DNA of 55,991 nucleotides from contig CAUYUJ010000118.1 of the NCBI GenBank assembly GCA_963575745.1, positions 62,001-117,991 of the forward strand, in the 5' to 3' direction. Numbering within the stretch: the stretch's first letter is position 1; each line of letters begins with the position of its first letter. Under the pieces are notes generated by a model. The model ran no database searches. It was given only the letters and a program-made list of their open reading frames with translations, and was not told the origin of the DNA. The DNA comes from Prorocentrum cordatum. Lineage: Eukaryota. The translations under genes were made by a program, and so were the position numbers. This document shows, piece by piece, positions 1 through 55,991 of the stretch.

Positions 1-248
1 AACGGCCAAATCCCGCCGCAACGCTTTGTGGCAGTAAAAGGTACCCGATCGGGCTGAGATCAAGACGGCGAGCGGGAATAAGATCGAATATGGTGGGAAA
101 AAATACTACAGGTCCAACGAATGGTTCAATTTCGAAAACAAAATTTTCAACCGACCAAAAGTCACCAAAAGGTCCATCGAGATTTTTCTTGCCAACTAGC
201 TCTCCACCGCCCCGGAACTGGCGCCGGCGGTGAACCGTCAACCTGGTC
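1..248 (-). repeat. Fragments of Helitron2/HINE-like non-autonomous elements, ending in the split 3' stem-loop that is the target of retroelement 1
   Basis: Same blocks recur at e.g. 13123-13330 and 26705-26910; CTGGCGCCGGCGGTGAACCGTCAACCTGGTC at 218-248 resumes as CAACCTGGTCACCGCCGG at 6373. Confidence 0.8.
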
Positions 249-328
249 TGCGGTCTGCGGGGCCCGATTCGAGCCCCCTTAGGGGGCAGGGCCAGCGGTA
301 GGATTACCTACAGGCAACCTAAGCACTA

Positions 329-455
329 ACAGCGGAGCTGTGCGATATACAAGTCAGCGTAGCTGTGCATATATGATACAACAGCGTAGCTGCACAGGAA
401 TATACACACATCAAGAAACAGTGGGGCTACGCATGTATCTTACAACAGCGGAGCT
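329..455. repeat. Degenerate minisatellite in the 3' UTR of element 1
   Basis: Core resembling ACAGCG(G/T)AGCT at 329, 354, 381, 418 and 445, separated by related AT-rich spacers. Confidence 0.65.
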
Positions 456-478
456 ATGCAGATATTATACACAAACAG

Positions 479-3400
479 TCACCTGCCAAGTTGTACGTGT
501 ATACACATCTCGGCAATGCCATTGAGAAGAGAATGTGCAGCTGCCAACTCAGCCTGTGTGATCGTGCAATGGCTAGGGATCATGAAACCTCTGCGGCCAA
601 CTCCAGGGTGCCATCCACCCTGCACAAGTCCAGGGGGAAGCTGGTGAGGAGGAAGAGAGGGAACAAGATAAACATCAATAACCCAGCCACACGAGGTGCC
701 ACGCTCACACCGCCCACCGTCAAAAGCTCCTCTAAGTGCACGAACAATATAATGACCCGATCTAATATGATAAAGAGTGTTATGATTCCAACGAACATCA
801 GAAGTTACTTTACCCTCACGTGCAAGATGTGTCTCATAGTCCGCCTCATCGTTGCCCTCCCTATACACCCATTTCCACATATCCCTTCCCACTTCAGCCG
901 TGACAAGATGATGGTCCTCACTCATTCTGTGGAGGCGGTTCTGCATACCCTTGATCGTGCGGCGGTATACTTCATTATGACAGCGATATCTTCCATTAAG
1001 CCAGCGCACAACACACTGGCTATCCCCACGGAGCTCCAAGCCATATCAACCCCCTTCCCCACGCCAAGTGGTTTCATCATCATTTATCGCGGCCAGTCGT
1101 TTCGCCACCCGTTCATTTTCCCGTCGTTGCTGCTCCTCAGACTTCTCCTCCCCCTTCTCCTCCTGCTTGAACTCACCCGTGAAGGGATCCCGAAGAAGGC
1201 AGAACTCGAGAAGATCATCCAAGTCCAGGGCGGCCAGGGTACCCACCAGGAAAGAACGCCAGCCAGTTTCATGCCAGACCATCGTGCGATCCCAATGAAC
1301 CCCGCGCGTGTGCTCGAAGACCTCGAACCAAGGCCTGAGTCCCGTCAAGACTCGATGACGACAGGTTCTAGTAAACCTTCGGCCCCCAGGGAGAGCTCTA
1401 ACATGTACGTCGCGCTGCTCAGTCCACTCCCCCGACGCGTGCATCATCGTCAAGGCGCTCTGCATACTGGCAGTGGGCAATCCTCCTTCCTCCTCCCGTG
1501 CATAGGTACGGCGTACCCGCTTACGAACAGGCTCATGTACATGTTGTGAATCGTGATGCTCATATGCCGTGTTCTCCGATATACGTCTGCGAACTGATCT
1601 ACTTTCCAAGGAAGATGCGCTCTGTGCCTTTCTCCTACACGAACTGTTGAGCTGTCTGGCATTCGGGGTAGGCGAGGGAACCGATAACTCCAAGAAACGC
1701 TGCGAACCACCAAAAATATCAGGATCTCGTGGCTCATGATAAAGAATGCCCTGACTGAGTGCGTCCTCATCCACCCGACTATGTTCCTCATGGATTGTGC
1801 TCACAACATGTTTGGCGAAGAGCCACTGGCGATGAAGGGCGAGCTGGACCATCGAAGGCTTACGGGCCCACTTCAATAAGCGACGGCCACCCTTAATCCT
1901 CCTGCCCCAGTACTCTCCCCAGGACTCCGTGATCTTCTTTTTGAGACGTCTCATGGTGGACAAGAAGTTGCCTTCAGCTGCATGTATCTGTTGGAGACTA
2001 CTCGAATCCAGAGTCGTACCCTCCAAGCCGTACAGAAAGCAACTTCTGACCCTGCTATCATAACGCTGAAACTTACAACGAAGCGGAACCACGGGCGACG
2101 AGTAAAAAGAAATCTCACTCATGAAGACCCTCCGTGCCTTCTCCAGTCGGTGCTTAATGTCGTCATGATCCTGAAATCGTACATCCAATAGCGTGCCGAG
2201 AACCTCCATCCTCTCCACCTGCCTCACTATCATCTCCTCCGAAGGGCCTGCGGCGCTCTGGGAAGCCCCACGAGAACGCTTCCTACCCATCTCAGCAGGC
2301 AGGAGCCCCGGTACAGGCAGGCGGATATCCTGCAATGGACCTTGAACGCCACAAGCCAAGAACTCCATCGAAGATGCTTTCCAGTTGAAACCGAAGCGGT
2401 GGAGGACCCCAGTCAAGTCCTCGAGCATATGAGTCAGTTCTCGCCTGGAAGCTGCTGCCAGCAAAATATTGTCTGCCCACAGCCAGTGGTTGACCAAGAG
2501 GTTGGATGCCTCATCAGTGAGCCTGACGCCGTATCCAGACTGCCTCCAACCTGCCGTCACTGGTGCAAGCATACGAAGTGTCTGGGCAACAAACAGCAAA
2601 GGCGCCTCCAAGGAGCCTGTACGTATGCAAGTATCCCACGAGATGGTCGTAGAACACTGTTGGAAGCTGATCTCTGCCGTATTACAAGCATAACTCTCAA
2701 AGACAGCATACACAAGGGCAGGATGGACATGATGGAATAAAAGCGCCTCTGCTGCACATCTCACCGTGAAATTATCAAACGCCTTTTCAATGTCAGCACT
2801 TGCAAGATAAAGACTCTCCTCCTTCCCCCACACAACGCCGTGTTGAGCAAGACGTTTGAGGGGGGCCGTGACCTCATAACATTTGTGCCCCGCAATAAAG
2901 CCATATAAGTTGCAACCTGGCGGCGCAGCCTGCCGAACGCGGTGCTCTAGAAGTACACATAGACAACTGCTATACCACTTACCAAAATGAGAAAGAAGTG
3001 AGAGGGCCCGCGTTTCTTCAAAATCACGAGCCTTGGGATTCTTAGGCATCAAGCATACCAAGATCTCTCTCCAGGACTTCGGTGAAACATGTTTCTGATC
3101 GTACAGCAAACGGAATAAGGTAAGTATGCGTCGGAGGGCTTCCCATGGCAATGCTTTGAGCACCGATGACGTCACCCCGTCTGCACCTGTTGCCCGTCCT
3201 TCCCTGGGTCTAGACCGTGCCTCCAGCAAGAGACCCATGTTGATCGGGTTGCGGTGGGGCTCTCCAAAGTCTCGCAGGGCCTTACACTGGTTCTTAAGCT
3301 CATCCAAGCACGCGTTGGTGTCCTGTCGGTGGGGATCGCTGGAGTACCTCAGGAGCCCATGCCGCCGAAGGCCCTCAATCCACTTCTCCTGGTCACGCGT

Positions 3401-4747
3401 GAGGACCCCGTCAACATACATGTGCGTAATAACAGGCCTACGACGGACACCATCACGAATACGGTAAAGCTCACATGCACGATCATGACGCTTACGTACT
3501 CGACGCCACCTCCTTGCTGTCCCCTTGTACTCCTCCTGGACTCTCTCGTACTCCTCCTGTCCCACGTTAGCCCCGCCATATCGTGCCACCCTCCACCTCT
3601 TCCTGACCTTAAAGAACTCCTCCTTTATCAGTAAATCCTCCTCCGAATATCTGGGATAGTCTGAAACAGGCTGACCACGGGAACGGGAGATATCCAAAGT
3701 CTCACTGGCACCCTCAAGTATACTCTGTGTCATGACCTCAAAACCTACATCCGTGTGGATCTGATTCACGAGCTCGGGCTGGCAAATCGCTCTCTCCAAG
3801 CCGGCTGTCTGCTGGAGCTCGAACCCTGGCTGAAGCTTCCAGGTCTTGAGCTGAGGCCGACGTCGATACCTCAACTGAGCATGCTGGGCGGGCATATCGG
3901 CACACAAGAGCTTGTGATCGCTAAACGTCCTTTCCGTCGCCTCCGACCGTGGGACCTGGGACGGCACAACCCAAGAACAAGTCACCTCTGGAGTCATCCA
4001 AGAAGCTGGGACCGCAAGATAATCATAGACGTGCTCGTATGTGCTCGAATTGTGTCTCCAAGTAGGCTGACGAGTCCCAAAAGTGTTGGCTAGCTGCAAC
4101 TTGAGGGCCCCCATGGTCTTCAGAAAGGCCCCCGAGTACATCTCCCTCATCCTGTTGGCTCTACTTTCGTCACCTCCACTAGACCTCCCCCTCTTACGTA
4201 TAGGCCCATTCACCGCCTCCCCCGTAACCTCCACCCCATTGATCCTGTGGTGCGGGAAAACCTCCACGTTGGCGTCAGCCGAGATAACAACCTCCTCAAT
4301 GTGAAATCGCTTTTTGGCCGCAGAGACATGTGCAACAAGATCCGATAACACGTCCGTATAGAGCTTGAAACTAGCAAGAAACCCTTCAGGAGAACGGCGT
4401 GCTTCACCCTGTGCACCCCGCTCAGACTCCTTATGAGGGAGATAGACAGAAACGAAGATGAGCTTGCGAAAGATTGCAATGACCCAGCGGCGACCACACA
4501 CAACATCGATAAGCAGATGTCTCCATACACCTCGGCACAAGATGGCAGCCCGTCTCCCCACGTTCTCCCCTTCATCTGCCGAGCGATGTATATCCCAACC
4601 CGCATCTGCAAGATCCAAGTCGTGTAAGAACTGGCTCTCTTGGACCCCGACGATGGAAATCTTTAATTCGGCAATGTGATTCATGCACTCGGAGGTGTAT
4701 CTTCCCAACCTCCGAACGTTCCAACCTCCAACAGAAGCTGGGCACCG
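479..4747 (-). CDS. ORF2 of element 1: APE endonuclease, reverse transcriptase, permuted RNase H; one in-frame TGA at 1046-1048
   Basis: APE motifs GWNV, VQE, VYLP, SADAN, YDY, SDH; RT motifs ATGADGV, ADIEKAFD, IRTGSLEAP, WADN; RNase H motifs GDS, YREGNDEAD, FDGG, TQAEL. Track ORFs 1046..4708 and 479..1039 are in the same frame. Confidence 0.92.
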
Positions 4748-5860
4748 TCACGAGCTGCTATTCACCTGCCTCTCCCAAGTCTTGCAGTCCAGATCTGGAT
4801 CGATGTGCTGGACCCGCTCGGACACGAACTTCCATCCCACGGTATCCGTCCACGTACCTACACACACTTTATCACTCTGACTATCCTTCTGCAGGTATGC
4901 CCAAGCCTTTGCAGGCCCTTCAGGCTCAAAAGTGATGAGAGCAGTGGCAACAGTCTTGAGCTTATGAAAGATCGCAGTCGCCTTGCGAGTCTCCCCCACT
5001 CTACGTCGGTCCTGTGGTGCCGGTTGGACAAACCAACCGAGGCGTCGATCTTTGCACGGTCCAAAACTATTCTGACAACCGACCAGATCAGGGCACGAAT
5101 TGGACCAGGCTGAGGCCCACTCGTTGCGTACTTCCCAGACCGTCTCTTTCGAAGTCCCTGGCATGAAGTATATGCGAAACTTGGTCACACCAAATCGATT
5201 GGAAGCGATATCCCCGTCCGTCCTACCTCTGTCGAAGATCTTAGTAACGTCACTCTCCCGTGCTTGCGATAGTGTGTACAACTTACCTATCATGTTCCTA
5301 ACCGTGGTGACCTGGATCTTGGCCTTATCTCGAGTTTCAACCTTTCGGGGGTCCTCTTGCGCGAAGCCGCTCACCTGGATCCAAGTCGGAACATGTGGTA
5401 CAAAGGGTCTCTGGAAGTCAGCAGTCCGAGAATCACGAGTAGATGCACCTCCCAGAGATGATGAATCTGCCCAGGGATCTCTAGAGTTCATCTGAGACTG
5501 AAGTGCTTTGATCTATTTCGCCTGGGCCTCCTGAGCTGAACGAATCTCCTGCACCGACGAAGCAATAGGGGCAACCTGCTCTGATACCCTCGTTTGAATC
5601 TGCTCTTTGATGTCAACAGAGTTCTGCATAAGCATCCTCTGCATATCTTCACGCATGGCATCGAACTGTGCACGGAGCATAGTGGCCAGATCTCCAGCAT
5701 CACCTCCACCTCCTCCACTACTACCACTTCCATTCCCACTAACTGCCCCACCTCCACCACCCTCGGCATCACCAAGAAGACGTCTATCTTCCAGGAGCTT
5801 CCTCTGTCGCTTCTCTCCGTTGCCCTCAGTTCCCATATCATCATCAGAAGTCGGAACCAT
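4748..5860 (-). CDS. ORF1 of element 1 (coiled coil plus conserved C-terminal domain); internal in-frame TAG at 5513-5515; frame open upstream to the element 5' end
   Basis: Track ORFs 5513..6523 and 4748..5491 share a frame (AK*IKALQSQMNS); RIYFMPGTSKETVWE matches RIYFKPGTSSEILWE (element 2) and RLYFQNGVTSDQLWD (element 4). First ATG at 5860. Confidence 0.8.
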
Positions 5861-6372
5861 CTTCCTCTTAGGATCACACTGCCCACAACTGGAAGTAGAA
5901 TACCGATAAGCTCGACAAGTAGGGCACCTACTAGCCTCCAGATCACGATAGTGTTCGTCCTCGAGTTCTTCAAGAAACTTATCCCAACCCCGTGAAGGTG
6001 AAAGTCGGTACGTGATGAAATCTGCTGCAACAAAAACGGCCAAAGTGTCCTTCTCAACTGCCAGAGCAAAACTGGTAAGTGCCGGGCTCCCAAGAGTATC
6101 ACAAGCAAACAGCAAAGATACAAGTGCAACAGGTAGCGGCCTTGCGCCTCCAGCGGCACGCGTGGGCTCACCCGCTAACACGAGCAGAGTACAAATGCAG
6201 CGACCTATGCGCAGCACGTCCAGGAGGTTGCAGCCGACGAAGTACACGAACTTATGGGCCAGCGCGCACCCACGCGCGCCCACGGCCGCCCAGGGGGCAG
6301 CCTGAGGAGACAGGCTTGAGGAGGCCCCCGACGGGCCAGGCCACCGCTGAGATCCCCGAGGAGGGACAGCGG

Positions 6373-9300
6373 CAACCTGGTCACCGCCGGGAACCTCGTA
6401 GAGCTCCTTGCTTGCACCCATGAGAAAGCTCAGGATCGAAGCGGAGAGCTTCTGGGAGCTTCCTAGAAAAACGTCAAATTGAGATTCTTCGGAGTCAACA
6501 TGACGTCGGTTCCGGGAAGTCAACTAATACAAACTGGCTCTAGAGAGCTGAGCTGCTGAGGAAACAAAGTTTATATGCCAATGCTCGGCGTAAAAATCTG
6601 CTTTCTCAAAATGAATTGTCAAATATCTTTCAAATCTGAGCAAAACCGACCCAAAGTCAACACTTTGTCCTTTCTGGTCGGCCCGACCAATGGGAACCGG
6701 CGGTAAACCGTCAACCAGGTTACCGCCGGCACCTCGTAGACCTCTTTTCTTGGACAGCGCTCCTCGGAACACATGAAGGAAGCTTCTGAAGCGAGAGCCG
6801 AAAAAATCGAAAAATCACGATTTTTCGGTTTTCATCCAAAGTCGTTTCCTCCAAGTGTTTTGATAGTAATACTGCACCTACGGACCTGAGAATTTGACTG
6901 GCAGACGCGGCATAACCCACTCCCCTCCCTCCCTCCCTGCCTGCTCACCGAAGAAGCTCATCAGATGACTCAGAAAAAACGCATTTTTTAGTGTCGATAC
7001 AAAGTCGGTTCCTCCAAGTGTTTTCATAGTAATACTGTCCCTAGGGCCATGAAAGATTAACCAGCAGGTGCGCCATAGCTTACTACAGGGAATGAACATC
7101 TCACTCCTGGAAACGAACTTCAACATTTGCCCCCCCAAAAAAAAAATGCACGGCGATCCTCGGAACACATGAAGAAAGCTTCTCGAGCGAGATACAACAA
7201 AAAAACGACAAATCACGTTTTTCTGTTTTATCCAACATCGGTTCCTCCAAGTGTTTTTGTAGTAATACTGCAGCTACGAACCTGAGAATTTGACTGGCAG
7301 ACGCGGCATAACCCACTACAGGTGCGAAAAATCTGCTCTCTCAAAATGAATTGTCAAATATCTTTCAAATTTTCGCAAAACCCACCCAAAGTTACCACAT
7401 TGTCTCTTTTGGTCGGCTCGGCCAACTAGCTCCACCCCGCGCCGGAATTCCTCTAGCTCATCGATGACGAAGAGCTCTACGAGGTACTAGCTCCACCCCG
7501 CGCCGGAATTCCTCTAGCTCATCGACTGGCGCCGGCGGTGAACCGTCAACCTCGTCACCGCCAGGAACCTCTTAGAGCTCCTTGCACGCATTGAAGTGCT
7601 CAGAATCGAAGCAGACAGCTTCTCGGAGAATTTCTCGAAAAAACGTCAACTTTGCATTTTTCGGTGCCACTGTGAGGTCGGTTCCTCCTAATTTTTCGAT
7701 AGTAAAACTGGCTCTAGAGAGCTGAGCTGCTCTGGGAATGAGTTTTATATGCCAATGCTCGACGTAAAAATCTGCATTCTCAAAATGAATTGCGGAAGAG
7801 CTCTCAAGCGCATCTGCAGCTCGAGTAAGTGGAAAAATCACCATCAGCTCGAAAAAAAAGGGTCGCATACGAATAGCTTTGCGGACCTAGCTCGGGTAGC
7901 AGACTGTGTTCAGAGCTCTAGATGCTCCAGCCTCCAGCCGAACGCCCCTGATGATGCTCGATGGGTTTCTGTGCGCTACAGCCCTGCAACTCTGCTACAG
8001 CTTCAGTTAAGTACAGAAGACCGACAGCGCCTGCAAAGAGAACTTGAAGAATACAAATAGTTTTGCGGACCTAGCTCGGGTAGCAGACCGAGTTCAGACC
8101 GCTCGATGCAACAGACGGACGCGCCTAATCATACATAATCCTCTCATGTGCGTACCAGCTCTGTAGCTATTCTGAATCGTGAGTTAAGGACAGAAAACCG
8201 ACAGCACTCGTCAAAATGACTCCAAGAATACGAATAGGTTTGCGGTCTCGAGATAAGTACAGAAAACCGTCAACACGTGTCAAGGACTCGAAACGGTCGA
8301 CGGTTCCCTCAAATCTTTTGATAGTAATATTGCAGCTACAAACCTGGCAATTTCACAGCCGCGCGCGCAATAACCCACTACAGGCGGGAAAAACACCTGT
8401 TCTTAAAACGAACTTTCAAATTTTACACACACATAGAAAAACCGACCCCAGGTTATCACATTGTCTCTTGGGGTCGGATCGGTCAACTAGCCCCACCCTG
8501 CGCCGAATTCCTCTTAGCTCATCTTACCGAAGAGCTCTACGAGGTATATCTTTCAAATCTTTGCGAAATCAACCCAAAGTTATCACATTGTCCGTCCGGG
8601 CCGGGTCGACCACTGGGAGCCGGCGGTAAACCGTCAACCAGGTTACCGCCGGGAGCCTCGTAGAGCTTTCCTCGCACAGCGCTGCTCGTAACACGCGGGG
8701 AATCTTCCTCACACGCGAGCTGAAGACTCGAAAAATACTTCAAGTGTTTCGATAGTAATACTGCAGCTACGAACCTGAGAATTTCACTGGCAGACGCGGC
8801 ATAACCCACTACAGGTGCGAAAAATACCGGTTCTCGAAACGAATGTTCAAATCTCTCAGAAAGTTTGCCCAACCGACCCAAAGTTCACACATTGTCCGCC
8901 CGGGCCGGGTGGATCAACTGGAAGCCGACGGTAAACCGTCAACCAGGTTACCGCCGGGGCCCTCGTAGAGCTCTTTTCTCGCACGGCGCTCCTCGGTACA
9001 GACAAAGGGAGCGTCTGGAGCAAGACCCGAAAAACTCGAAAAATCACGTCTTTATGTTTTTATCCAAAGATGGTTCCGCCAAGTGTTTTGATAATAATAC
9101 TGCGCCTACGGACCTGAGAATTTGACTGGCAGACGCGGCATAACCCACTACAAGTGCGAAAAATCTGGTTTCTCAGAATGAATTGTCAAATATCTTTCAA
9201 ATATTCGCAAAACCGACCCAAAGTTACCTCTGGGCGCCGGCGGTAAACCGTCAACCTTTCTTACCGCCGGGAGACTCGTAGAGCTTCCTTACCATATATT

Positions 9301-11503: not shown

Positions 11504-11541
<38 letters not shown>

Positions 11542-14500
11542 GACAACGCATGTCAAGATGACCCCAAACGGCCGATCCCGACCGTGTGCTTTTTGGCATT
11601 AATATCTACCCGATCGAGCTAAGATTAAGACGGCAATCGGGAATAACTTCGAATATCATGGTAAGAATACTAGATCTCCAACGAATGGTTCAATTTCGAA
11701 AACAAAATTTTCAACCGACCAAAAGTCACCAAAAGGTCCATCGAGATTTTTCTTGCCAACTAGCTCTCCGGCGCCCCGGAATTACTCTTAAGCTTCCAGC
11801 ATAAGCTCTGTAGCTGTCCTACAGCTCGAGTTAAGTACAGAAAACCGACGACGCGTGTCAAGATGACCCGAAACGGCCGACCCCGCCCGTGTGCTTTTTG
11901 GCAGTAATATCTACCCGATCGACCTGAGATCAAGACGGCGAGCGGGAATAAGATCGAATATCACGGGAAAAAATACTAGAGCTCTAACGAATGGTTGAAT
12001 TTCGAAAACAAAATTCTCAACCGACCAAAAGTCACCAAAAGGTCCGTCGAGATTTTTCTTGCCAACTAGCTCTCCAGCGCGCCGGAATTACTCTTAAGCT
12101 TCCAGCAACTAGCAAAGGAAAGCTCTACGAGTTACAGCCGATCCTGCCCGCGTGCTTTTTGGCAGTAAAAGATATCCGATCGAGCTGAGATCAAGATGGC
12201 GAGCAGGAATAAGGCCAAATATCACGGGGGAAATACTAGAGCGCTAACGAATGGTTGAATTTCAAGAACAAAATTTTCAACCGACCAAAATTCACCAAAA
12301 GGGTCGTCGAGATTTTTCTCACCAACTAGCTCTCCAACGCCCCGGAACTGGGCGCCGGCGGTAAACCGTCAACCTTTCTTACCGCCGGGGGACTCGTAGA
12401 GCTTCCTGACCATATATAATGTGGAAAAATACAGAGAACGAATAATTTTTCAGCCCGAGATTTCAGACCTCTCGATGCAACAGCCGAACGCCCCTGATGC
12501 TTCTGGATCGTTTTCTGTGCGCACGAGCTCTGTAGCTCTCCTACAGCCCGAGTTACGTGCGAAAATCGGCAGGACCTCTCAAGATCACTCGGACAATACG
12601 AATAGTTTCGCGGACCTAGCTCGAGTATCAGACCGAGTTCAGACCTCTGAACGCGACAGACGGACGCGCCTGATGTCTCCAAATCGATTCCTGTGATTAC
12701 CAGCCCTGCAGCCCCCCTACCGCCCGAGTTAAGTGCAGAAAACCGACAGCACCTCTCGAGATGACTCGAACAATACGAATAGTTTCGCGGACCTAGCTCG
12801 GGCAGCAGACCGAGTTCCGAGCTCTGGATTCGACAGGCGGACGCGCCTGATGTCTCCAAATCGATTCCTGTGATTACCAGCCCTGTAGCCCTCCTACAGC
12901 CCGAGTTAAGTACAGAAAACTGACAGCACCTCTCAAGATGACTCGAACAATACGAATAGTTTCGCGAACCTAGCTCGGGCAGCAGACCGAGTTCAGAGCT
13001 CTCGATTCAACAAACAAGCGCGCCTGATGATTCTGAATCGGCTTGTGTACGCATCAGCTCTGTAGCTGTCCTACAGCTCGAGTTCAATACAAAAAACCGA
13101 CAGCGCCTGTCGAGATGACTCGAAACGGCCGATCCCGCCTGCCTGCTTTTTGGCAGTAGAAGGTACCCGATCGAGCTGAGATCATGACGGCGAGCGGGAA
13201 GAAGATCGAAAATCACGGGAAAAATACTAGAGCTCTAACGAGTGGTTGAATTTCGAGAAAAAAAAAATCGACCGACCAAAAATCACCAAAAGGTCCGTCG
13301 AGATTTTTCTTGCCAACTAGCTCTCCAGCGCGCCGGAATTACTCTTAAGCTTCAGCAACTAGCTAAGGGAAGCTCTACGAGATATTACTCTTAAGCTTCC
13401 AGCAACTAGCTAAGGGAAGCTCTACGAGTTACTTGGTAGCGTCCACTTGGTAGCGTCCAAAACCCGGAGAGCAAAGAGACACTCGGGGACTGGGAGCCGG
13501 CGGTAAACCGTCAACCAGAGCTCTTCTCTCGCACGGCGCTGCTCGTAACACGTGGGAAGAGTCTCACACGCGAGCTCAAAACTCGAAGAAATACGTTTTC
13601 TTAGTTTTTATCCAAAGACGGTTGCTTCAAGTGTTTTGATAGTAATACTGCAGCTACGGATTTGCAAATTTATTGGCGGGCGCGGCATAACCCACTACAG
13701 GTGCGAAAAATACCAGTTCTCAAAACGAATGTTAAAATCTCTCAGAAAAATTGTCCAACCGACCCAAAGTTCACACATTGTCCGTCCGGGCCGGGTGGGT
13801 CAACTAGCTGCACCCCGCGCCGGAATTCCTCTAGCTCATCGATGCCGAAGAGCTCCACGAGGTACTCTTTAGCTTCCAGCAACTAGCTATGGAAGGCTCT
13901 ACGAGTTATAGGGATCCGGCGGTAAACCGTCAACCAGGTAACCGCCCGAAGCCTCGTAGAGCTCTGTTCTTGCGCGGCGCTGCTCTGAGCGCACGGAAAA
14001 AGCTTTCTCAAGCGTGAAGAAAAAAGCTCGAAACAAATATTTGTTCATTTCGTATCCTCCTTTTGTGGACCTAGCTCGAGTGCAAGACCGAGTTCAGACC
14101 TCTCGATGCGAGAAAAGAACGCGCCCGGTGATACTCGATCGGTTTATATGCGTACCAGCTCTGTGGCTCTTCTAAATCTTCAGTTAAGGGAAGCCGACAG
14201 CACCTGTCAAGATCACTCGTATGATGAATAGTTTCGCGGATCTAGCTCGAGTAGCAGACCGAGTTCAGACCTCTCGATGGAACAGACGAACGTGCCTGAT
14301 GATTCTGAAGCGGTATCTATAAGCATCAGCTCTGTAGCTGTCCTAAATCTCGAGTCAAGTACAGAAAACCGTCAACGCGTGTCAAGATGACTCGAAACGG
14401 CCGACGATTCCCTCAGATCTTTCGATTGTACTTTTGCAGCTACGGACCTGAGAATTGAAGTGAGAGACTCTGCATAACCCACTACAGGTGGAAAAAATAC

Positions 14501-15928: not shown

Positions 15929-15981
15929 TGGGTGTTGGGGTCGGCTACACAGGGCGCGTGCGCCCTAGCCGTGCAGAGTCC

Positions 15982-31776: not shown

Positions 31777-31808
31777 TGGGCGCCGGCGGTAAACCGTCAA
31801 CCTTTGTT

Positions 31809-39800: not shown

Positions 39801-40475
39801 TTCTGTGCGTACCACCTCTGTAGCTGTGCTACAGCTAGAGTTAAGTGCAGAATACCGACAGCGCCTCTAAAGAGAACTTGAGAAATACGAATAGCGTTGT
39901 GGACCTAGCTCGACTAGCAGAACGAGTTCAGGCCTCTCGATGCAACAGACGCAAGCGCCTGGTGATACTGAATCAGTTTATGTGCGCACCAGCTCTGTAG
40001 CTCCTCTGAATCTTGAGTTGAGTACAGAAAACCAGCATCACTGGTGAAGATGGCTTTTACGGACCTAGCTCGAGTAGCAGACCGAGTTCAGGCCTCTGGA
40101 TGCAGCAGGCGAACGCGCCTGATCATTCTGACTCGGTTTCTGTAAGTATCAGCTCTGTAGCTCTCAAAATCTCGAGTTAAGTACAGAAAACCGTGAACGC
40201 GTGTCAGGATGACTCGGAACGCAGTTGGTTCCAGCAAGTCTTTTGATAGTAATATTGCAGCTACGGGCCTGAGAATTTAACTGGCAGACGCGGCATAACC
40301 CACTACACGTGAGAATAATACCGATTCTCAAAATGAATTGTCAAATATCTTTCAAATCAAAGCAAAACCGACCCAAGGTTATCACATTGTCTCTTTTGGT
40401 CGGGTCGGCCAACTAGCTCCACCCCGCGCCGGAATTCCTCTAGCTCATCGATGCCGAAGAGCTCTACGAGGTATT
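33809..40475 (-). repeat. Nested mosaic of Helitron2/HINE-like elements
   Basis: Hairpin termini near 34959, 36020, 36356, 36756, 37095, 38744, 39059, 39347 and 39584; ~177-bp internal repeats. Confidence 0.8.
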
Positions 40476-43400: not shown

Positions 43401-45313
43401 AAGCTTCGCTCTGCGCAAATAGCAGCCCAAACGAATTGTTAGAACTGCAAAAATCGGCTGAGCCAGGCCGCGGAAGGTATGATCGCGTCCCTTTTCGACA
43501 TTTCGCCAACTAGCTCCACCCTGTCGCCGAATTCCTCTAGCGCTTCTACCATCAGAGCTCTACGAGGCACTAGAAGTGCCAAGCAGACGCCTGAGAGAAC
43601 TAAGAGTGCGCGTAGCCTGTGCTGATGGCATTTTCTGCAAAACTGGAAAATTGCATTTTGGACTGCCAACATGAAGTCGGTCCCTGGCTTCGCTCGGGAG
43701 AATTTTTCGACGGAATGAACTAAGAACTTGTGAGGTAACTTCTGTAATGCCAAGTTTCGCCCTGCGCAAATAGCAGCACAAACGAATTGTTAGAAATGCA
43801 AAATCGGCTGAGCCAGGCCGCGGAAGGTATGATCGCGTCCTTTTCGACATTTCGCCAACTAGCTCCACCCTGCCGCCGAATTCCTCTAGCTCTTCTACCC
43901 TCAGAGCTCTACGAGGCACTAGAAGTGCAAGCAGACGCCTGAGAGAACTAGAAGTGCAAGCAGATAGTTTCTGATGGCATTTTCTGCAAAACTATTCCCC
44001 TACATGTTTTTAAACTTCCACGACCCCAGAGTCCCTGGCTTTCGCTCGGGAAGAATTTTTCGACGGAAAACTAAGATGTTGTGAAGTAACTCTGTAATGC
44101 CAAGCTTCGCTCTGCGCAAATCGCAGCCCAAACGAATTGTTAGAACTGCAAAATCGGCTGAGCCAGGCCGCGGAAGGCATGATCGCGTCCCTTTTCGACA
44201 TTTCGCCAACTAGCTCCACCGTGTCGCCGAATTCCTCTAGCTCTTCTACCATCAGAGCTCTACGAGGCACTAGAGTGCAGCAGACGCTTAGGAACTAGGG
44301 TGCAACAGATTGCTTATGATGGATTTCTGCAAAACTGGAATTTGATTTTTCGACTGCCAACGTGAAAGTCGGTCCTGGCTTCGCTCGGGAGAATTTTTCG
44401 ACGGAATGAGCTAAGAAATTGTGAGGTAACTTCTGTAATGCCAAGCTTCGCTCTGCGCAAATAGCAGCCCAAACGAATTGTTAGAACTTCAAAATCGGCT
44501 GAGCCAGGCCGCGAGAGGTATGATCGCGTCTCTTTTCGACATTTCGCCAACTAGCTCCACCCTGTCGCCGAATTCCTCTAGCTCTTCTACCATCAGAGCT
44601 CTACGAGGCACTAGAAGTGCAAGCAGACGCCTGAGAGAACTAGAAGTGCAAGCAGATAGCTTCTGATGGCATTTTCTGCAAAACTGGAAAATTGCATTTT
44701 TGGACTGCCAACGTGAAGTCGGTCCCTGGCTTCGCTCGGGAGACTTTTTCGACGGAATGAACTAAGAATTTGTGAGGTAACTTCCGTAATGCCAAGCTTC
44801 GCTCTGCGCAAATAGCAGCCCAAACGAATTGTTAGAGCTGCAAAATCGGCTGAGCCAGGCCGCGGAAGGTATGATCGCGTCCCTTTTCGACATTTCGCCA
44901 ACTAGCTCCACCCTGTCGCCGACTTCCTCTAGCTCTTCTACCATCAGAGCTCTACGAGGCACTAGAAGTGCAAGCAGACGCCTGAGAGAACTAGAAGTGC
45001 AAGCAGATTGCTTATGATGGCATTTTCTGCAAAAACTGGAAAATTGCATTTTTCGACTGCCAACGTGAAGTCGGTCCCTGGCTTCGCTCGGGAGTTTTTG
45101 TCGACGGAATGAACTAAGAATGTGTGAGGTAACTTCTGTAATGCCAAGCTTCGCTCTGCGCAAATAGCAGCACGAACGAATTGTTAGAACTGCAAAATCG
45201 GCTGAGCCAGGCCGCGGAAGGTATGATCGCGTCCTTTTTCGACATTTCGCCAACTAGCTCCACCCTGTCGCCGAATTCCTCTAGCTCTTCTACCATCAGA
45301 GCTCTACGAGGCA
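40476..45313 (-). repeat. Tandem array of about 14 copies of a ~352-bp unit derived from a HINE-like 5' end
   Basis: Unit 40739-41090 (352 bp); junction CTACGAGGCA|CTAGAAGTGC repeats throughout; first copy partial. Confidence 0.95.
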
Positions 45314-48300: not shown

Positions 48301-48686
48301 CCGTTCCCGCCACAGTGCTTTTTAACCTTCAAAGTTACCCGATCGAGCTGAGATCAAGATGGCGAGCGAGAATAAGATCGAATATCACGGGAAAAAATAC
48401 TAGAGCTCTAACGAATGGTCAAATTTTGAGAACAAAATTTTCAACCGAGCAAAAGTCACCAAAAGTTCCGTTGAGATTTTTCTTGCCAACTAGCTCTCCA
48501 GCGCGCCGGAATTACTCTTAAGCTTCCAGCAACTAGCCCCGCGCCGGAATTCCTCTAGCTCATCGATGCAGAAGATCTCTACGAGGCGCTAGCTCCATCC
48601 CGCGCCAGAAGTCCAGCTCATCGATGCCGAAGAGCTCTACGAGGTACATAGCACTGGGCGCCGGCGGTAAACCGTCAACCTTTCTT
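45314..48686 (-). repeat. Nested mosaic of Helitron2/HINE-like elements
   Basis: Hairpin termini near 45333, 45606, 46633, 47031, 47340 and 48661. Confidence 0.8.
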
Positions 48687-48760
48687 TTTTTGCGGTTTGC
48701 GGTCCGCCACTAGAATCCGAATCCGAATCGGCGGAGCAGTGCAACTGAGCCCCCACCATC

Positions 48761-51700
48761 TTAGGTAGGTCGTAACAGAGCGCACGCCACCTTAGCAGCA
48801 GCTCTCGTCAGGGCAGCGCAGGCAGCTAGTTCACAGCAGGTTACCGTGCTACCAGGAGGCAAGCTCATCGCCTCCTCGGCCACATCGTGCCAATGGAAGC
48901 TGTGCGAGCTGGCGCAGGAGGAAGAGGAGGAGGAGGAGGAGGAGGAGGAGGAGATGGGAAAATCAACCTGCACGCTGAACCCCTACCTACAACGCCAATC
49001 TGAAGCCACCACCCACCTCCACATCCTTCATTACTGACACCCCCATCGAATGCACCACGGAGAGCAGTCTTACGAGTACTGAGGAACTTATCATATGCAA
49101 ACCAGCGAGTAATAGTTTGGCCACCTCTGCCTCCCACGACAATTTATCCGCACGCTCATTACCCTCACGAAAGAAATGCTTATACAGATTCTGTCCCGAT
49201 GCAGGTGAGGTCAGTCCCCATCCAGACAGCATCGATACCGTATTTTGTAGTGTTCCCACCAGTCGTACATACTGCTTGTTGCGAATCTGCCACTCACCAC
49301 ACATCCAGGTTACAACAGTCTTACTATCTCCCAAGATCTCCATCCCAAGACGCTCAATATTCTCACACCTCCACTCCGTTTCATTCTCAAAATTAGCGGC
49401 AATACGTTTGCTCATCCTCTCATTCATCTCACTCTCCCCCTCCTCCTCTGCCTTCACATGTCTCACACCAGGCGGCCTGGGTAGAACAAACAAGTCGAAC
49501 AAGTGTTGCATACCAATCACAGTCAGCAAATGCTTGCAGTATTTCTCACGGGACCCAGCGGAACTGTCGAATGAGAGGTACCACTCACACCCAAAGAGAT
49601 CGCACAAGCACCAGTCCCACGCAGTATGTCCACGGGGGCGGCCGCCTATGTTCATGCGTGTCAGCTGCTTCCTATCTTTTACAGGCATTGCTAAAATACA
49701 TGTGTCACGATGTTCCGTCCACTTCCCCCTTCCATGTAACATGGCCAGCCTAGATATCATCCATTCACGTGACATGTCCGACTCCTCAGGTATGGCAGGC
49801 TGATCATCTGGTGTACGCCGGCGACAGCCACTCGACATCTGGGATATCTGAGATACATGATATGTTTGAGAAGTCGCCGCCGCCGCCATCGCCCGAGTTT
49901 TCCTCTGACGCCGATTTGGTACCGTCTCTCCCTCCTCCTCCTCCGTGTGTGTTGTGTATCTCCTCATACGAATACTTGCAGCAACTGAGACATCCTTAGC
50001 CCAATCCCAACAACGAAATATCCATATCTGCACCGCACTTCGGAATCCAAGTCCAGCAAAACTCTGTCGTCCCGCTTTGTATCGCCTACGTTGAAACTCA
50101 GACCAGCCTTCAGTTCTCCGCTTGCGTATACCTGACATTATAGCTAGAAATCTGCCTTCAAAATAGTGAACAGCAGCAATGGTAGAATAGTCGGGCGTTC
50201 TGCCCTCACAGTTGAATAATAATGCAGCAATCACTTTAGCTTGATAGCGAGTAAATCTTTCAGCCAAGTCAATCCCAGAACAGCGGTAATACGCGATTTC
50301 CCAAAGAACATCCTCTGGGCTTTCTGGAGCATGGCCTCTGAGTCCGAGTGGTCCTTCCAGGTCTCCTCCAGAGTGGCTCCCAGGATCTCAAACGCTTGAA
50401 CACGCGGTAGGACCACTTCTCGGGTCCCAAGAGCGGCGTCACTAGGCGGCACCAGCACACGGATATCCTGCTCAGGGGACGGCGGGATGCCAGGCGGCGC
50501 ACCAAAGTAAATATACATCAAAGATTTCGGCTTCCAGGTCATTCCTGCATTCATCAGGGGGATACTCATGTCACGCACCATCAACTCAAGGTCAGTGCGG
50601 GTTTTCGCATACAACAAAAAATTATCTGCCCAGAAACTGTGGGTCATACGCTCACCATTGAACATGCGCTCATCATTTTCCAATTTGATGCCGTACTGCG
50701 TTTCTTGCCTCCATCTGTCGATAACATCTCTCCAGAGTACAATAGAAACTGCCAGAAAAATCATAGGTCCCTCTACTCCCCCCGTTCGAATAGATTTGTC
50801 CCAATAGACCGCTGACGATGCCTCGATGCCCTCGAAGCTGGCCACGCACTGATTATCCATCATGGGTTCAATCAACGCCACAATGAGATCAGCAGGTATG
50901 TCAAGAGCACGAAGACAGCGCATGGCGAGGCACGGAGTAACATTATCGAAAGCTTGTAAAATATCAAGGTTGGCAAGCCACAAACTGTCTCCTTTGCCCC
51001 AGACAGCGGAGTGCTGGCTGAGCCTCTTGGCAACGCTGGTGATTTCCGATGTTTTGCGTCCCGATCTGAATCCGTACAGGCATACATAGTGTCGGTGCTC
51101 CTCAATCCTCTTCTCAATCAACATCACAATACATGTAATGTACCATTTCATAAGACACGACTGTAGACATAGCATACGTGTATCTGTCAAATGTTGTATG
51201 TCCATTTCTTTTGGCATGAGTGTGGCAGCTAGTTGACGCCAACTGTCGGGACAACATAACCTTCTGGAATACACACCTTGGAAGCTCACCAGAACACGTC
51301 GCACAGATGCCCACGAGAGCTGTTTCAACATCGTGACAGTCACGTTGTCGGGACCTGGGGCCTTGCCCGTGGACAGCTTCGCCCTCGCCCGCAGCAGGAG
51401 CGACATCGAGAACACCTCTGAGGATCCGCTTCCCGAACATAGACCACGCAGCGACTGAAGCTCACGCAGGGTCACCTCTCTGGCCTCGGGGTCCTCCACC
51501 TTAGACTTCATGTGCCCCAATATCTCGTCCCCCCACTCCTCGCGGTTCTGAGACTCCATCCCGTTGGCAAGGATCAACGTCTCCGGCTTGGCCCTCCTCC
51601 TCCTCCTCGTGTTCATTTCCGTCCTCCACCTCTGTACTCTTGCCTCTAGCCTCCTTCTTTCTCTCCTCACAATCTTTGAGCACCGTTTAGCCTCCTCTCT

Positions 51701-52938
51701 ATCCCCCCGACGAAGAGCTTCACGTTTACTTGCCTGGGCGGCCCAGTGGATCTCGGATTTCTTTGGCGCATTATTCCTGGGATTGATATCTTTCTGGGGG
51801 GTCTCCTCGGCGGCCTTTATGAGGTCAGGTCCCAGCGTATCCAACATCTCCTGTCGATCCTCTGGGTCAGCATTTTCCTGGCACAGAGCACGGTAACGAC
51901 TGCCCCGATCGTCCATGTTCTTCGCAAACTCCAGCTGTGACACCGGTTGCAAGTGATGAATTTTCGAGCAGGCTGGGTCCGTCTCTTCGCAGACGGTGCA
52001 CAAGACAAGCGAACAACTATGCAGGCGTGGTCAGACAGCGCACGCTCGTATCTGCTGCAAGGGTGCTCCGTCCAGGCGTGGCCGACTTCCGAAGGCAGCA
52101 TCCAGCCAACTGTGAGCTCCTGCCTGTGTAAACGACGGCTGACCCCAACATAGTCGAGCACCTTCTCCACCCCCGTACCTGATTTGAAAGTAACCCTCCT
52201 CTGCCCGAATGTGTTCTCCATCCTGATGCCCCAGAGCCCGCAGAAGTCCAGTAGGGCCCTCCTCATCGATTGCAACCTAGACGCCCGTCGAATTTCGAAG
52301 CCCGAGACAAGCCTATGAGGTCTGGCTTTGCGTGCACCACGTTTTGTTAGAGTCATATACGGATTACCGTCATCCGCTCCCTCCTCCATCCCAGTATCAA
52401 TCTCCGTAGACCCCCCAGCAATCCCAGACGCCTCCAGAAGCCCTGATCCAGTAACTCTAAAGCCGTTGACCTCCGAATCTGGCTCGAGTTCGACGTTAGC
52501 ATCTGTCAAGAAGACCAGGTCCTGCGGCTGCTTCGGGAACTTAGACCTATGTGTGCGAAGCACTCGGGATATATCAAACAAAATCTGTTCATACACATCA
52601 TGCTCATACTGTTCTTCCGTAAGGGCATTGATACTCTCATGTGGCATATATGCAACAATAACCGTAACACTAGAACAACTACAAATGACAAAACCTTTGC
52701 CACGATATGTGGCTCTGAGCGAGTCTCTCCAAGACTTAGACATAATCACCGCAGCCTTCCGACAAGTACTCCGAAAAATTGTGTAACCTCGCATGCTGAG
52801 ATCACGAACTGAAAGGAACTGACACTCGCACAACCCCGCGAGTCCCACATCTAAACGACGTAGTGAAATAATTATGTCATGGCCGTTCTCTGCACCTGCC
52901 CGACGCACATTCCATGACGCAATGGTGTCGTGGCACCT
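48761..52938 (-). CDS. ORF2 of element 4: APE-RT-permuted RNase H, broken by four single-base frameshifts
   Basis: SWNV, LCE, AYMP, TDAN, LDY, SDH; APGPDNV, LDILQAFD, IRTGGVEGP, WADN; GDS, HFFREGNERAD, FDGG, TCCEL, spread over track ORFs 51817..52908, 50231..52003, 48987..50267, 48865..49137 and 48761..48973. Confidence 0.88.
48916..48953. repeat. (GAG)n microsatellite within the RNase H coding region of element 4
   Basis: About 12 GAG units with one GAA interruption. Confidence 0.85.
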
Positions 52939-53981
52939 CTAGTTCGTACTGGAAATCCTCGCTCGCAACTCATCAATGTTGATCCCTGGCTCAAGCTGAT
53001 TCATTGCACGAGTGATCTCCCAGCCATTCTGCAGAGAGAACTTTGCCACAATCTTCCCTGGAGGTGGTAAGTGGTCACTGGAGCCCCACATGAACGTAAT
53101 CGGTGGTCCCGTCTCAGCCCTGAGATTCGAATGATGCTTCTTGAAACTCTTGAACTTGGCCTGAAAGATCCCAGCGGCATCCAGATGGGGCTTCTTCCAG
53201 GGGGGGGCCTCCACGTGTACCTTGAGGGCCCTGGGAGCGTGCTGGAGTTTGTTGTCGGCGATCGCGGCAACGAGTCGACGACGAAGATCCCACAGCTGGT
53301 CACTGGTAACCCCATTCTGGAAATAGAGCCGAGCACGCGAATACCCCCACGCCTCTCTACCTGTGAACCTCTTGGATTGGTTCAGGTCCAGAAACTCCTT
53401 CACACCACTGAGCCATTCTCCAGCCAGGACCTCATTCAGCAGTGAATTCAACGCCTGCTGCGATAGCATCTCCTCCTGACGCTTCTCTGCATCTCTCCAG
53501 TCCGTCACCCATCCCTTGAGCTCGACGATCGATGGGGTGAAATTCTGCACTGACTGCCGAGTTTCCGCCGAGGACGCTGTCGTAGAGGTGCCTGCTCTGG
53601 GGGCCCCACCTGCAGGAGCCTGCTGGAGCTGGATTATCCGGAGCCTCTGATCCTCAACCTTCTTAGTAATAGCATCTATGTCCGTCATCGCCTGCTGTAC
53701 ATTTTTCTCCACCGAATCAACACGAGCATTGAGCTGGGTGCCGAGATCCGTGATGCTTCGATGTGTTGATTGGAAGCCCTCCGTCATCTTACCTCCCAGA
53801 GATGCAACAAGCGTCGTGATCTTGTCCATCCCCTTTGCCATGGCCTCCTCGAGCCTTCAACCGTCTGAAGTTTGACCCGTTTTCCCTCTGGGACCTCCTC
53901 CTCCTTGGCTCCTGGAACGCGCATATCAGTGGCGTCCATAGCGAAAACCTCGGGGACCGCAGCAGCTGATGAGGCAGCCAT
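52939..53981 (-). CDS. ORF1 of element 4 (one frameshift near 53850; frame open upstream to the element 5' end)
   Basis: VELKGW, PWKKPH, AETGPP and NGW motifs match ORF1 of element 2; first ATG at 53981. Confidence 0.82.
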
Positions 53982-54486
53982 CTTGCCGTCTGAGATATTA
54001 CAAGGGATATTCCACTTCGCACAGAACGATCGATCTTCTCGAGTACGTTTGAGATGTGCACTCAACTGAGGAAAGTTATATGGGGCAACAGGATGGTGAG
54101 GTAAAGTGGGAGAGAGATCAGGTGGCCCAGATGGTATGTCGACTAGAGAATCCTTATCGTCGTGTCGAGCTCTACCAACCTTTCTGGCAAGATACTCCCA
54201 CTCCCAATGTCCGAAGTTGGCTCCCCAGCGGTCCAAATCGATCGATTGACTCTGGCTCGTCCCGTCCAGCTCGACGCGGCAAAATGCCGCAAACAAGTGC
54301 AGGCGGCCTGCTCGCAAACAAGTGCAAACAATGCCGCAAACAAGTGCAGGCGTCGCCGAAGTGGCCCGATCGCCACGCGCCCCCGCGCGGCGGGCCAGGG
54401 GCAGGCTGCCTGACTGCACGATGCAGCTCGAGTGAGCTCCCCGACGGGACAAGGCCGAGGGAGAGCGGGAGGTAAACTCCGCTTCC

Positions 54487-55991
54487 TCAACCTTTCTTAC
54501 CGCCGGGGGACTCGTAGAGCTTCCTGACAATATATAATTTGAAATAGAATTTCAGAGAACGACTAGTTTTCCAGCCCAAGCGATTCTAGACCTCTCAAGA
54601 TGACTCTAACAAAACAAACGAAGAGTTTTCTAATCGAGCTCGAGTATGAAACCGAGTTCAGTGAATGCCACAGGCAGACGCGTCTAATGTCTGCGGATCG
54701 ATTCCTGTGATTACCAGCTCTGCAACCCCCCATACAGCCTGAGTTAAGAGCAGAAAACCGAGAGCACCTCTCAGGATGACTCGAATAATACAACAGTTTC
54801 GCGGATCTCGTTCGAGCAGCAGACCGAGTTCCGACTCTCGGTTCGACGAACGGACGCGCCTGATGACTCGAAACCGATTTCTGTCACCAGCAGCACCTCT
54901 GACACACAAATCCAAGCCCGAGCCTGGGCGCGACACACGGAGATACAAACAAACGCATACAAATAAGTACGAAAAACCGAGAGCGTCTGCTACAATGAGT
55001 CGAATAATACGAATAGGTTTGCGACCCTAGCCCGGCTAGCAGACCGAGTTCAGGCCTCTGGATCCAACAGACAAACGCGCCTGATCATTCTGAATGCATT
55101 AGCTGTGCTCACCAGCTCTGGGGTTGTTCTGAAGCTCAAATTATCTTGAGAAAACCGACAGCGCGTATTAAGATGACTCGAAACGGCCGTTCCCGCCTGC
55201 CTGCTTTTTGGCCTTCAAAGTTACCCGATCGAGCCGAGATAAAGATGGCGAGCGAATAAGACCGAATATCATGGGAGAAACTAGAGCTCTAACGAATGTT
55301 CAATTTTTGAGAAAAAAATTTCAACCGACCAAAAGTCACCAAAAGGTCCGTCGAGATTTTTCTTGCCCACTAGCTCTCCAGCTCCCCGGAATTACTCTTA
55401 AGCTTCCAGCAATAACTGGGAACCGGCGGTAAACCGTCAACGAGGTAACCGCCGGAGCCCTGGTGGAGCGCTCTGCTTGCACGACGCTCGTCAGTGCATA
55501 TTCAGGGAGATTCTGGAGCGAAACCAAAAAACATCGAAAAACACGTTTTGCATATGTTTATCCAAAGATGGTTTCGCCAAGTGTTTTGATAATAATACTG
55601 CGCCTACAGACCTCAGAACTTATTGGCGAACGCGACAAGACCCACTACAGGTGCTGAAAACTGCGAACCGGCGGTAAACCGTCAACCAACTTACCGCCGG
55701 CACATCGTAGAGTTCTCTTCTTACACAGCGTTCTCCGAACACGTGAAGGAAGCTTCTGAAGCGAGAGCCGAAAAATTCGAGAAATAAGGATGTTTCGGTT
55801 TGCATACAGTGGGTTCCTCCAAGTGTTTTCATGCCGGGTCGGCCAACTAGCTCCACCCCGCGCCCGAATTCCTCTAGCTCATCGATGCCGAAGAGCTCTA
55901 CGAGGTACTATGGGCGCCGGCGGTAAACCGTCAACCTGGTTACCGCCGGGGACCTCGTAGAGCTCCTAGCCCCGTGTCATAAGTCCACGCG
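54487..55991 (-). repeat. Nested mosaic of Helitron2/HINE-like elements
   Basis: Remainder of the split hairpin at 54487-54522; further hairpins near 55424, 55668 and 55917. Confidence 0.8.

Follow-up and report, generated by a model that had tools for sequence, protein, structure and literature searches.

Why do three dissimilar retrotransposons interrupt the same hairpin at the same base? The question is raised by a stretch of Prorocentrum cordatum DNA (assembly GCA_963575745.1, contig CAUYUJ010000118.1, positions 62,001 to 117,991 of the forward strand), whose full length of 55,991 nt we refer to as the window. All open reading frames (ORFs) of at least 200 amino acids in the window belong to four elements on the minus strand, E1 to E4, that resemble long interspersed nuclear elements (LINEs). 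No further LINE fragments were found in the window by tblastn. E1, E3 and E4 each split a copy of a short hairpin that is repeated throughout the host sequence, and E2 lies outside it. We think it probable that they represent a lineage of site-specific LINEs with an apurinic/apyrimidinic endonuclease (APE), living in the 3' hairpin of a rolling-circle transposon.

Three LINEs at one base of a repeated hairpin

The target is an inverted repeat of 33-34 nt, CCGGCGGT[AG]AACCGTCAACC(N3-4)T[TC]ACCGCCGG. A regular-expression search finds 37 complete copies in the window, of which 36 point the same way. The left arm CCGGCGGTRA occurs 84 times in the window (4.4 expected) and the right-arm core ACCGCCGG 71 times (1.1 expected). 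Folded as single strands, the hairpins form stems of 10-12 bp. Their z-scores in a shuffle test are modest (-1.5 to -2.5), because shuffled GC-rich sequences fold as well; the evidence is the inverted repeat itself. Scans of the window for tRNA genes and Rfam families found none, indicating that the target is not a known RNA gene. An intact copy and the three interrupted copies are as follows.

34959..34992, plus strand: intact, empty target hairpin (example; regular expression, folding)
224..248, plus strand: hairpin interrupted by E1, left arm with loop, consisting of CCGGCGGTGAACCGT and a copy of the target-site duplication (TSD) CAACCTGGTC at 239-248
249..6372, minus strand: LINE E1, full length (ORFs, junctions)
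6373..6390, plus strand: right side of E1, second TSD copy CAACCTGGTC at 6373-6382, then ACCGCCGG at 6383-6390
31783..31808, plus strand: hairpin interrupted by E3, left arm with loop, CAACCTTTGTT (junction reading)
31809..33808, minus strand: LINE E3, 5'-truncated within the reverse transcriptase (RT), with the C-terminal part of the RT and the RNase H kept
33809..33815, plus strand: host sequence after E3, resuming with CCGCCGG; the A of ACCGCCGG is lost
48661..48686, plus strand: hairpin interrupted by E4, left arm with loop, ending in CCGT and a TSD copy CAACCTTTCTT at 48676-48686
48687..54487, minus strand: LINE E4, full length with several frameshifts (junctions, protein similarity)
54488..54506, plus strand: right side of E4, second TSD copy CAACCTTTCTT at 54488-54498, then ACCGCCGG at 54499-54506

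All three minus-strand LINEs cut the hairpin at one phosphodiester, YY^ACCGCCGG on the plus strand. Because all LINE ORFs are on the minus strand, this position is the first-strand nick, made on the plus strand, and the 3' ends of the LINEs lie at the left. The 3' OH that primes the cDNA belongs to the plus-strand base before ACCGCCGG; at E1 the nick falls after base 248. The second cut is marked by CCGT^CAACC, where the TSDs of both E1 and E4 begin. Both duplications are perfect, 10 bp for E1 (CAACCTGGTC) and 11 bp for E4 (CAACCTTTCTT); no TSD is found at the junctions of E3. That a 33-nt hairpin yields 10 bp and a 34-nt hairpin 11 bp would be explained if each cut had its own landmark instead of a fixed stagger (n = 2). 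When the LINE and one TSD copy are removed, the hairpin of E1 is identical to the intact copies with the same loop at 25472 or 45333, and that of E4 to those at 9237 or 12355.

These junctions, duplications and rebuilt hairpins bear out much of the initial annotation, which had placed E1, E3 and E4 at the same hairpin base, started the duplications of E1 and E4 at CCG(T)^CAACC in loops that differ, and proposed that insertion splits the hairpin; the two arms are indeed set apart around each LINE. Its account of junction sharpness holds for E3 and E4, which are blurred by a few bases through the T-run. It does not hold for E1, which had been described as exact: microhomology (GGTC) leaves up to 4 bases ambiguous there too.

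Given 38 sites in 36,669 non-LINE bases, the chance of three insertions falling at one strand-specific phosphodiester is about 1e-10. The pattern of a LINE tail followed by a hairpin loop occurs only at the three insertion places in the window, compared with 0.03 expected. We asked if a weaker preference could account for these numbers, with the endonuclease recognizing a generic YY^A, as L1 does, and the clustering reflecting survival in harmless repeat DNA. The L1 endonuclease prefers T-rich^A sequences, which the nick contexts TTCTT^A, TTGTT^A and GGTC^A resemble. However, the window contains 5,754 YY^A sites, yet all three hairpin-clade insertions are at the same base, and selection for harmless sites cannot choose one base in 36.7 kb of repeat DNA. 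A weak bias is therefore a very unlikely explanation.

Two decayed hairpins, at 13497-13530 and 23640-23660, are deletions and not LINE insertions. One lacks approximately 20 bp spanning the right arm, and the other lacks the loop, with GCGGTGA joined to CCGCCGG.

Independence of the insertions

The three occupied hairpins might also record a single event: segmental or tandem duplication could have multiplied one old LINE insertion together with its flanks. In favor of such copying, duplicated units are numerous in this head-to-tail array, and all three LINEs have the same orientation. The LINEs themselves argue otherwise. E1, E3 and E4 have no mutual nucleotide similarity by blastn, whereas host units of the same class do. 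Translated comparisons (tblastx, tblastn) put the identity of E1 over the RT at 32% with E2 (546 residues) and 33% with E4 (455 residues); with E3 it is 30-47%, in segments. A maximum-likelihood tree, rooted at the midpoint only, unites the four LINEs of the window with six unnamed database proteins (P0001, P0002, P0008, P0009, P0011 and P0013) in one clade (SH-aLRT 99%). Within it, E1 falls with P0001 and P0002, E3 with P0013, and E4 with P0011, so that each sublineage has different database relatives; E2 is sister to the remaining members (94%; midpoint root). The absence of DNA similarity together with the three sublineages indicates that E1, E3 and E4 inserted independently. TSDs and loop classes also differ (10 bp, TGGTC, versus 11 bp, TTTCTT). 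Furthermore, the host flanks upstream of the three LINEs correspond to different truncation points of the host unit, which excludes a single duplicated event. Duplication of one insertion is thus already contradicted and has almost no probability left, and the independent, deeply diverged insertions proposed in the initial annotation stand.

The inserted elements are APE-type LINEs

Pfam detects RVT_1 in E1, E2 and E4 (E-values 1e-7 to 2e-13) and no other family in the elements; the Pfam scan misses the APE domain in the window copies. A profile built from E1, E2, E4 and their relatives gives human L1 ORF2p as the best match of solved structure, across both APE and RT (E-value 1e-26, profile positions 6-713). 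The same profile matches the R2 RT, the exonuclease III family and L1-EN (approximately 1e-4) and, at the C-terminus, RNase HI, including one of archaeal origin (approximately 2e-4). The APE motifs WN, QE, YLPH, DANVE, DY and SDH are all present in E1; the SDH motif is lost in E4. An AlphaFold model of the first 300 residues of E1 ORF2 (pLDDT 76.5, pTM 0.82) resembles the APE1/ExoIII fold (Foldseek E-value 1e-9). Single-sequence searches of the PDB with ORF2, its APE part or its RNase H part returned nothing useful. Other features are typical of LINEs: TSDs of 10, 11 and 15 bp (E1, E4 and E2), the 5' truncation of E3, and the (CCGCARA)2 tails. Together, the RVT_1 matches, the profile and the fold of the model identify the elements as the APE-type LINEs that had been suspected. 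The coding regions are arranged as follows.

About 6370-4751, minus strand: E1 ORF1, with one internal TAG at 5513-5515
4747-1049, minus strand: E1 ORF2 with APE and RT (Pfam, profile, model)
1045-482, minus strand: E1 RNase H, downstream of a TGA
4748-4750 in E1, 19764-19766 in E2 and about 52939-52941 in E4, minus strand: stop codon between ORF1 and ORF2 (sequence reading)

Read in the LINE sense, the 3' tails are (CCGCAGA)2 in E1, (CCGCAAA)2AA in E4 and CCGCAAAGTCCGCAAAA in E3. Two copies of CCGCARA end each of these elements and also the first of two junctions from sequencing run X7, described below; the tail of E2 differs.

ORF1 is kept in E1, E2 and E4, and neither a Pfam family nor, by profile search, a solved structure was found for it. 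In all three full-length LINEs, ORF1 and ORF2 share a frame and are separated by a single stop codon, TGA in E1 and E2 and TAG in E4. The context in E1 and E2 is TGA-CGG. This sequence arrangement suggests that ORF2 may be produced by read-through of the stop codon or by translation restarting at this conserved junction. The TAG within E1 ORF1 is GAG in contigs of all four sequencing runs that contain E1 (5515 A>C on the plus strand), indicating that other copies or strains have ORF1 open at that codon.

The predicted APE domain contains two long helices, at ORF2 residues 120-148 and 192-214 (approximately 4390-4300 and 4170-4105 of the window, minus strand). Both are modeled with pLDDT mostly of 84-96, and both lengthen the alignment to APE1 and ExoIII. 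As a lead only, these modeled helices could be inserts for DNA recognition.

Close relatives of the LINEs are few. Two proteins are 50% identical, and an exhaustive search returned 13 proteins at an E-value of 1e-30 or better. The ESM Atlas gave generic RVT_1/Exo_endo_phos clusters only, with no useful taxa, and viral contigs contained no relative of E1 ORF2.

The host units have the terminal layout of Helitron2 elements

What is the sequence that carries the hairpin? In Helitron2 elements, an asymmetric terminal inverted repeat (ATIR) lies 0-2 bp from the 5' end, inside a 5' hairpin, and a 3' ATIR lies just before the 3' hairpin, according to the available part of PMC3627910; the accessible text of PMC13085455 summarizes Helitron2/Helentron ends likewise. 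This layout sets the minus strand of the window as the sense strand of the host elements. On that strand, the 3' end consists of GCTCTACGAGT, 4-5 nt, the hairpin, and then an 8-nt tail, CGCCCAGT. Full-length units begin with (T)ACTCGTAGAGCTTCC or ACCTCGTAGAGCTC, directly after the 3' tail of the preceding unit.

13376..13432, minus strand: full host 5' end (example), in which the 5' ATIR ACTCGTAGAGCTTCC folds with GGAAGCTTAAGAGT into a 5' hairpin (z -4.0, 0 of 200 shuffles as good)
40473..45313, no strand assigned: 351-bp satellite, 13.8 copies at 93% identity, with the host ATIR motif GCTCTACGAG once per unit

The 3' ATIR CTCGTAGAGC occurs 41 times on the plus strand with at most one mismatch, and most copies directly adjoin a hairpin. 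Two subfamilies have a 5' ATIR that pairs with downstream bases to form a 5' hairpin. Fold z-scores are -4.0 and -5.4 for the TTTC type, with none of 200 shuffles as good; the second subfamily has a different sequence and a weaker fold (z -1.0). On the plus strand, each loop class has its own conserved sequence after the hairpin; before the hairpin comes host sequence that is the same throughout but is cut at many points and joined to ACTGG(G)CG and the hairpin.

The terminus can also be seen outside the window. Across 111 distinct contexts from metagenomes, the conserved sequence runs to exactly 8 nt past the hairpin and the bases further out are random, which indicates a true element terminus. 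The arm core is kept in 106/111 contexts, and CTCGTAGAGC is found within one mismatch in 86/111. The last conserved host base is T in 101/111, seen as A at position -8 of the strand displayed; this would fit the insertion of Helitron2 elements within T|T(C), which leaves no TSD.

The non-autonomous Helitron2/Helentron elements CRe-1,2,3 and Helitron-1N_CRe of Chlamydomonas share the ATIR-hairpin ends, truncation and internal tandem repeats of the host, as far as the available portions of PMC3627910 and PMC13085455 describe them. There are also differences. The host 3' ATIR is approximately 46 nt from the end, compared with 20-30 nt in the published elements (PMC3627910, available part), and the host has no RepHel partner that we could find and forms unusually long head-to-tail arrays of truncated units. 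DINE-1/HINE are also non-autonomous elements of the Helitron2/Helentron type. The Helitron-type host of the initial annotation therefore agrees with the Helitron2/Helentron design at both ends, as a matter of structure. With the host strand fixed by this layout (window minus), LINE and host share one orientation, as had also been claimed.

Host units with a constant 3' end, variable 5' truncation and head-to-tail order also look like retroposons. Could they be short interspersed nuclear elements (SINEs) moved by these LINEs, the hairpin being a 3' recognition stem-loop common to both, with LINE and SINE lying end to end? Read-through LINE transcripts would then end in the same half hairpin. 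However, in 2/2 full-length copies the hairpin becomes complete again, with the matching loop class, when the LINE and one TSD are removed, and the LINE tails themselves have no hairpin. Window scans found no tRNA, 5S or 7SL head. The host has Helitron2 hallmarks and not SINE features, and 5' truncation is reported for the Helitron2 elements of Chlamydomonas as well (both from the part of PMC3627910 that is available). We consider a SINE origin quite unlikely and retain the Helitron2-like host.

Head-to-tail host units occupy approximately 6400-48660 and 54507-55991, with 5' ends cut at many points. Truncated 5' ends are joined directly to the preceding 3' tail, often with ACT/AGT microhomology. 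Many units contain internal tandem repeats of 173-178 bp (177-bp). The satellite at 40473..45313 seems to be derived from a Helitron2-like end, as each of its units contains GCTCTACGAG.

Sequencing runs and metagenomes

E1 is present at approximately 98% identity in contigs of four sequencing runs from four studies. E1 is listed for metagenomes from marine, estuary and freshwater sources and for three coded organisms; no RNA dataset is among these. The intact form of the hairpin appears many times in the run contigs, including joints from 238 to 6373, which is expected because other host copies exist. The host flanks are approximately 100-700 times deeper than E1 (about 700x in runs X2, X3 and X6, about 110x in X7), indicating that the target is highly multicopy.

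Run X7 contains two further LINE-like tails at the same base, each as the loose end of one contig. The first, TTTTGCGGGCTTTGCGG... (TTTTGCGGGCTTTGCGGTGGGG...), begins directly after 6721 (AGGTT^), at a hairpin which the window has in intact form. The second, ATTTTGCGTCTTTGC... (ATTTTGCGTCTTTGCTGGG...), begins after base 247.

In metagenome contigs, the left arm and loop occur at no fewer than 124 loci, at least; 120 were examined and contain 133 matches, 114 of which pass a strict test for the right arm. Most of the others are degenerate. Viral contigs contain no hairpin. Genome contigs give 7 matches to a 20-mer, in high-GC bacteria and in two contigs of one Nitrospinota metagenome-assembled genome. 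The Nitrospinota contigs are the same records as metagenome loci, and the matches in high-GC bacteria plausibly arose by chance.

A candidate from the metagenome loci was rejected: contig L051 has an RVT_1 fragment at 2709-3227 (E-value 1e-6), 1.6 kb from an intact hairpin and outside it, which we attribute to another retroelement, not at the hairpin.

Strand asymmetry and a model for insertion

The motif YYACCGCCGG alone is found 32 times on the plus strand and 37 times on the minus strand of the window, in nearly equal numbers because the hairpin arms are inverted copies of each other. Despite this symmetry, all five events, three in the window and two in X7, nicked the plus strand. These five events suggest that recognition includes something asymmetric, whether the loop (CAACC...), bases beyond the arm, or structure.

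The window would then be an array of head-to-tail, often 5'-truncated, non-autonomous Helitron2/Helentron-type units, with a lineage of APE LINEs landing in their hairpin. In the model we propose, the LINE endonuclease would nick the complement of the Helitron sense strand, directly 5' of ACCGCCGG and two bases into the 3' arm. The freed 3' OH (...CAACC-N3-4-YY) would prime reverse transcription of the LINE RNA, and the second strand would be cut at GGTTG^ACGG (CCGT^CAACC on the plus strand). With each cut placed by its own sequence landmark, the TSD would be 10 bp in the 33-nt hairpin or 11 bp in the 34-nt hairpin. The LINE would end up co-oriented with its host, with the hairpin arms up to 6 kb apart.

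Target-primed reverse transcription from a sequence-specific APE nick, as in R1 and Tx1L, is the best-supported reading of these data. The APE domain would set the specificity. The hairpin would be the termination signal of the Helitron, conserved for that reason, and would thereby offer the LINEs a stable, multicopy and harmless niche. Read-through RNA aids priming in R1; by analogy, read-through RNA that includes half of the hairpin might help priming here.

An endonuclease with sequence specificity would be unnecessary if a cruciform or stalled hairpin were nicked by cellular nucleases or by the Helitron Rep, and the LINEs used the breaks. The site is a strong inverted repeat, the nick is at the border of loop and stem, and L1 is able to insert at DNA lesions independently of its endonuclease. 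However, the APE catalytic motifs of E1 are intact. Both cuts are at fixed sequence positions across loop lengths and leave clean TSDs, and 5/5 events fall on the same strand of a structure that is nearly symmetric. Rep would be expected to cut the sense strand at the element end, not the opposite strand inside the hairpin. For these reasons pre-existing breaks seem unlikely, and a sequence-specific APE nick is preferred.

Several observations weigh against site-specific targeting of a Helitron hairpin. The sample is small: five events, two of which come from the loose end of one contig apiece. In the four runs, no contig carries 31 letters on both sides of an E1 junction; record 9 of X3 comes closest, with 24 host letters and no mismatch. 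In the 120 metagenome loci, 0 of the 133 left arms are occupied by a LINE, a count to which we give little weight because the contigs are short and their host units are at best 76-85% similar to those of the window. No RepHel is encoded by ORFs of at least 200 residues outside the LINEs in the window, and no Helitron or PIF1 domain was detected in the 128 ORFs scanned of 221 listed for the metagenome loci. As the host elements seen are non-autonomous, the lack of RepHel here decides nothing, and the term Helitron-type refers to structure. Finally, E2 belongs to the same clade and is inserted elsewhere, which means that hairpin targeting is not universal in the family.

E2, a relative outside the hairpin

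15912..21305, minus strand: LINE E2, same clade, outside the hairpin (TSDs, tree, tail)

E2 is flanked by a 15-bp TSD, ACTTGGTAGCGTCCA, at 15897-15911 and 21306-21320. Elsewhere in the window its target sequence lies 36-40 nt from a hairpin (13444 and 29303). E2 may therefore have a second preferred site, beside Helitron ends. The target ACTTGGTAGCGTCC is present as a perfect tandem duplication of 14 bases at 13430-13457, with nothing between the copies; the target also lies at 29303-29320. The tandem copies at 13430-13457 look like an empty TSD at the site that E2 occupies elsewhere. The 3' end of E2 (CCAAGTGGACGCC) resembles the junction of such a ACTTGGTAGCGTCC duplication.

Relation to known site-specific LINEs

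Site-specific LINEs mainly target sites conserved by the cell, such as rDNA, telomeres and snRNA genes, and Tx1L and Tx2L are the textbook LINEs aimed at another transposon. Tx1L and Tx2L of Xenopus laevis, which insert into Tx1d and Tx2d, resemble the LINEs described here in behavior: they are APE LINEs that use a fixed site inside a transposon and form composite elements. Their target is an internal repeat of a cut-and-paste transposon, whereas here it is the terminal hairpin of a rolling-circle element. Unlike Tx1L and Tx2L, the LINEs in the window have an RNase H domain and a (CCGCARA)n tail.

A likeness in behavior is also found with R1 (28S rDNA) and TRAS/SART (telomeric repeats), which make fixed cuts on both strands of a multicopy target and insert in a fixed orientation. 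The targets of R1 and TRAS/SART are kept constant by selection in the host cell; here the constraint would come from another selfish element. For R1Bm, the APE domain cleaves both strands sequence-specifically, according to the available text of PMC1919474. Human LINE-1, the best structural match, differs in its loose TTTT/A specificity, its poly(A) tail and its lack of RNase H, and the identity is low.

Full-text literature searches, outside which lie subscription journals and Repbase reports, found no LINE targeting a Helitron hairpin. The only case of a LINE inserting into a transposon found in these searches was Tx1 into Tx1d, reviewed as an example of a transposable element that targets others in the portion of PMC6719617 that is available. 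Our best reading is that the hairpin LINEs represent a new class of target for a known strategy, that of Tx1L and R1. If so, they would be a second and mechanistically different case of a parasite of a parasite, in which one selfish element constrains the target of another. Each insertion should then disable the Helitron end it enters, and with it the host copy. The compact 33-nt target and an APE domain with unusual, predicted long helical inserts would allow one to ask how an APE reads sequence as opposed to DNA structure. Target and domain may also interest work on targeted RNA-mediated insertion.

A broader proposal is possible but doubtful. The LINEs may form an old clade of hyperparasites of rolling-circle transposons, whose sublineages, at approximately 30% protein identity, all kept one landing site because the Helitron Rep holds that transposition signal constant. 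Recognition may read an extruded hairpin or cruciform asymmetrically, rather than plain duplex. E2 would mark the adoption of a second site next to Helitron ends. Because the module is found in more than 100 unrelated marine metagenome contexts, many species could offer this niche.

In one of the metagenome contigs, L045, two hairpin modules lie tail to tail at 100-250, within 250 nt of the contig end. The contig also encodes RNase HII and GluRS, whose gene ends overlap. The GluRS is 92% identical to proteins labelled as Poseidoniales/Thalassarchaeaceae archaea and 100% identical to an unnamed cluster. L045 may be a chimeric assembly or may reflect a real presence of the module in an archaeon.

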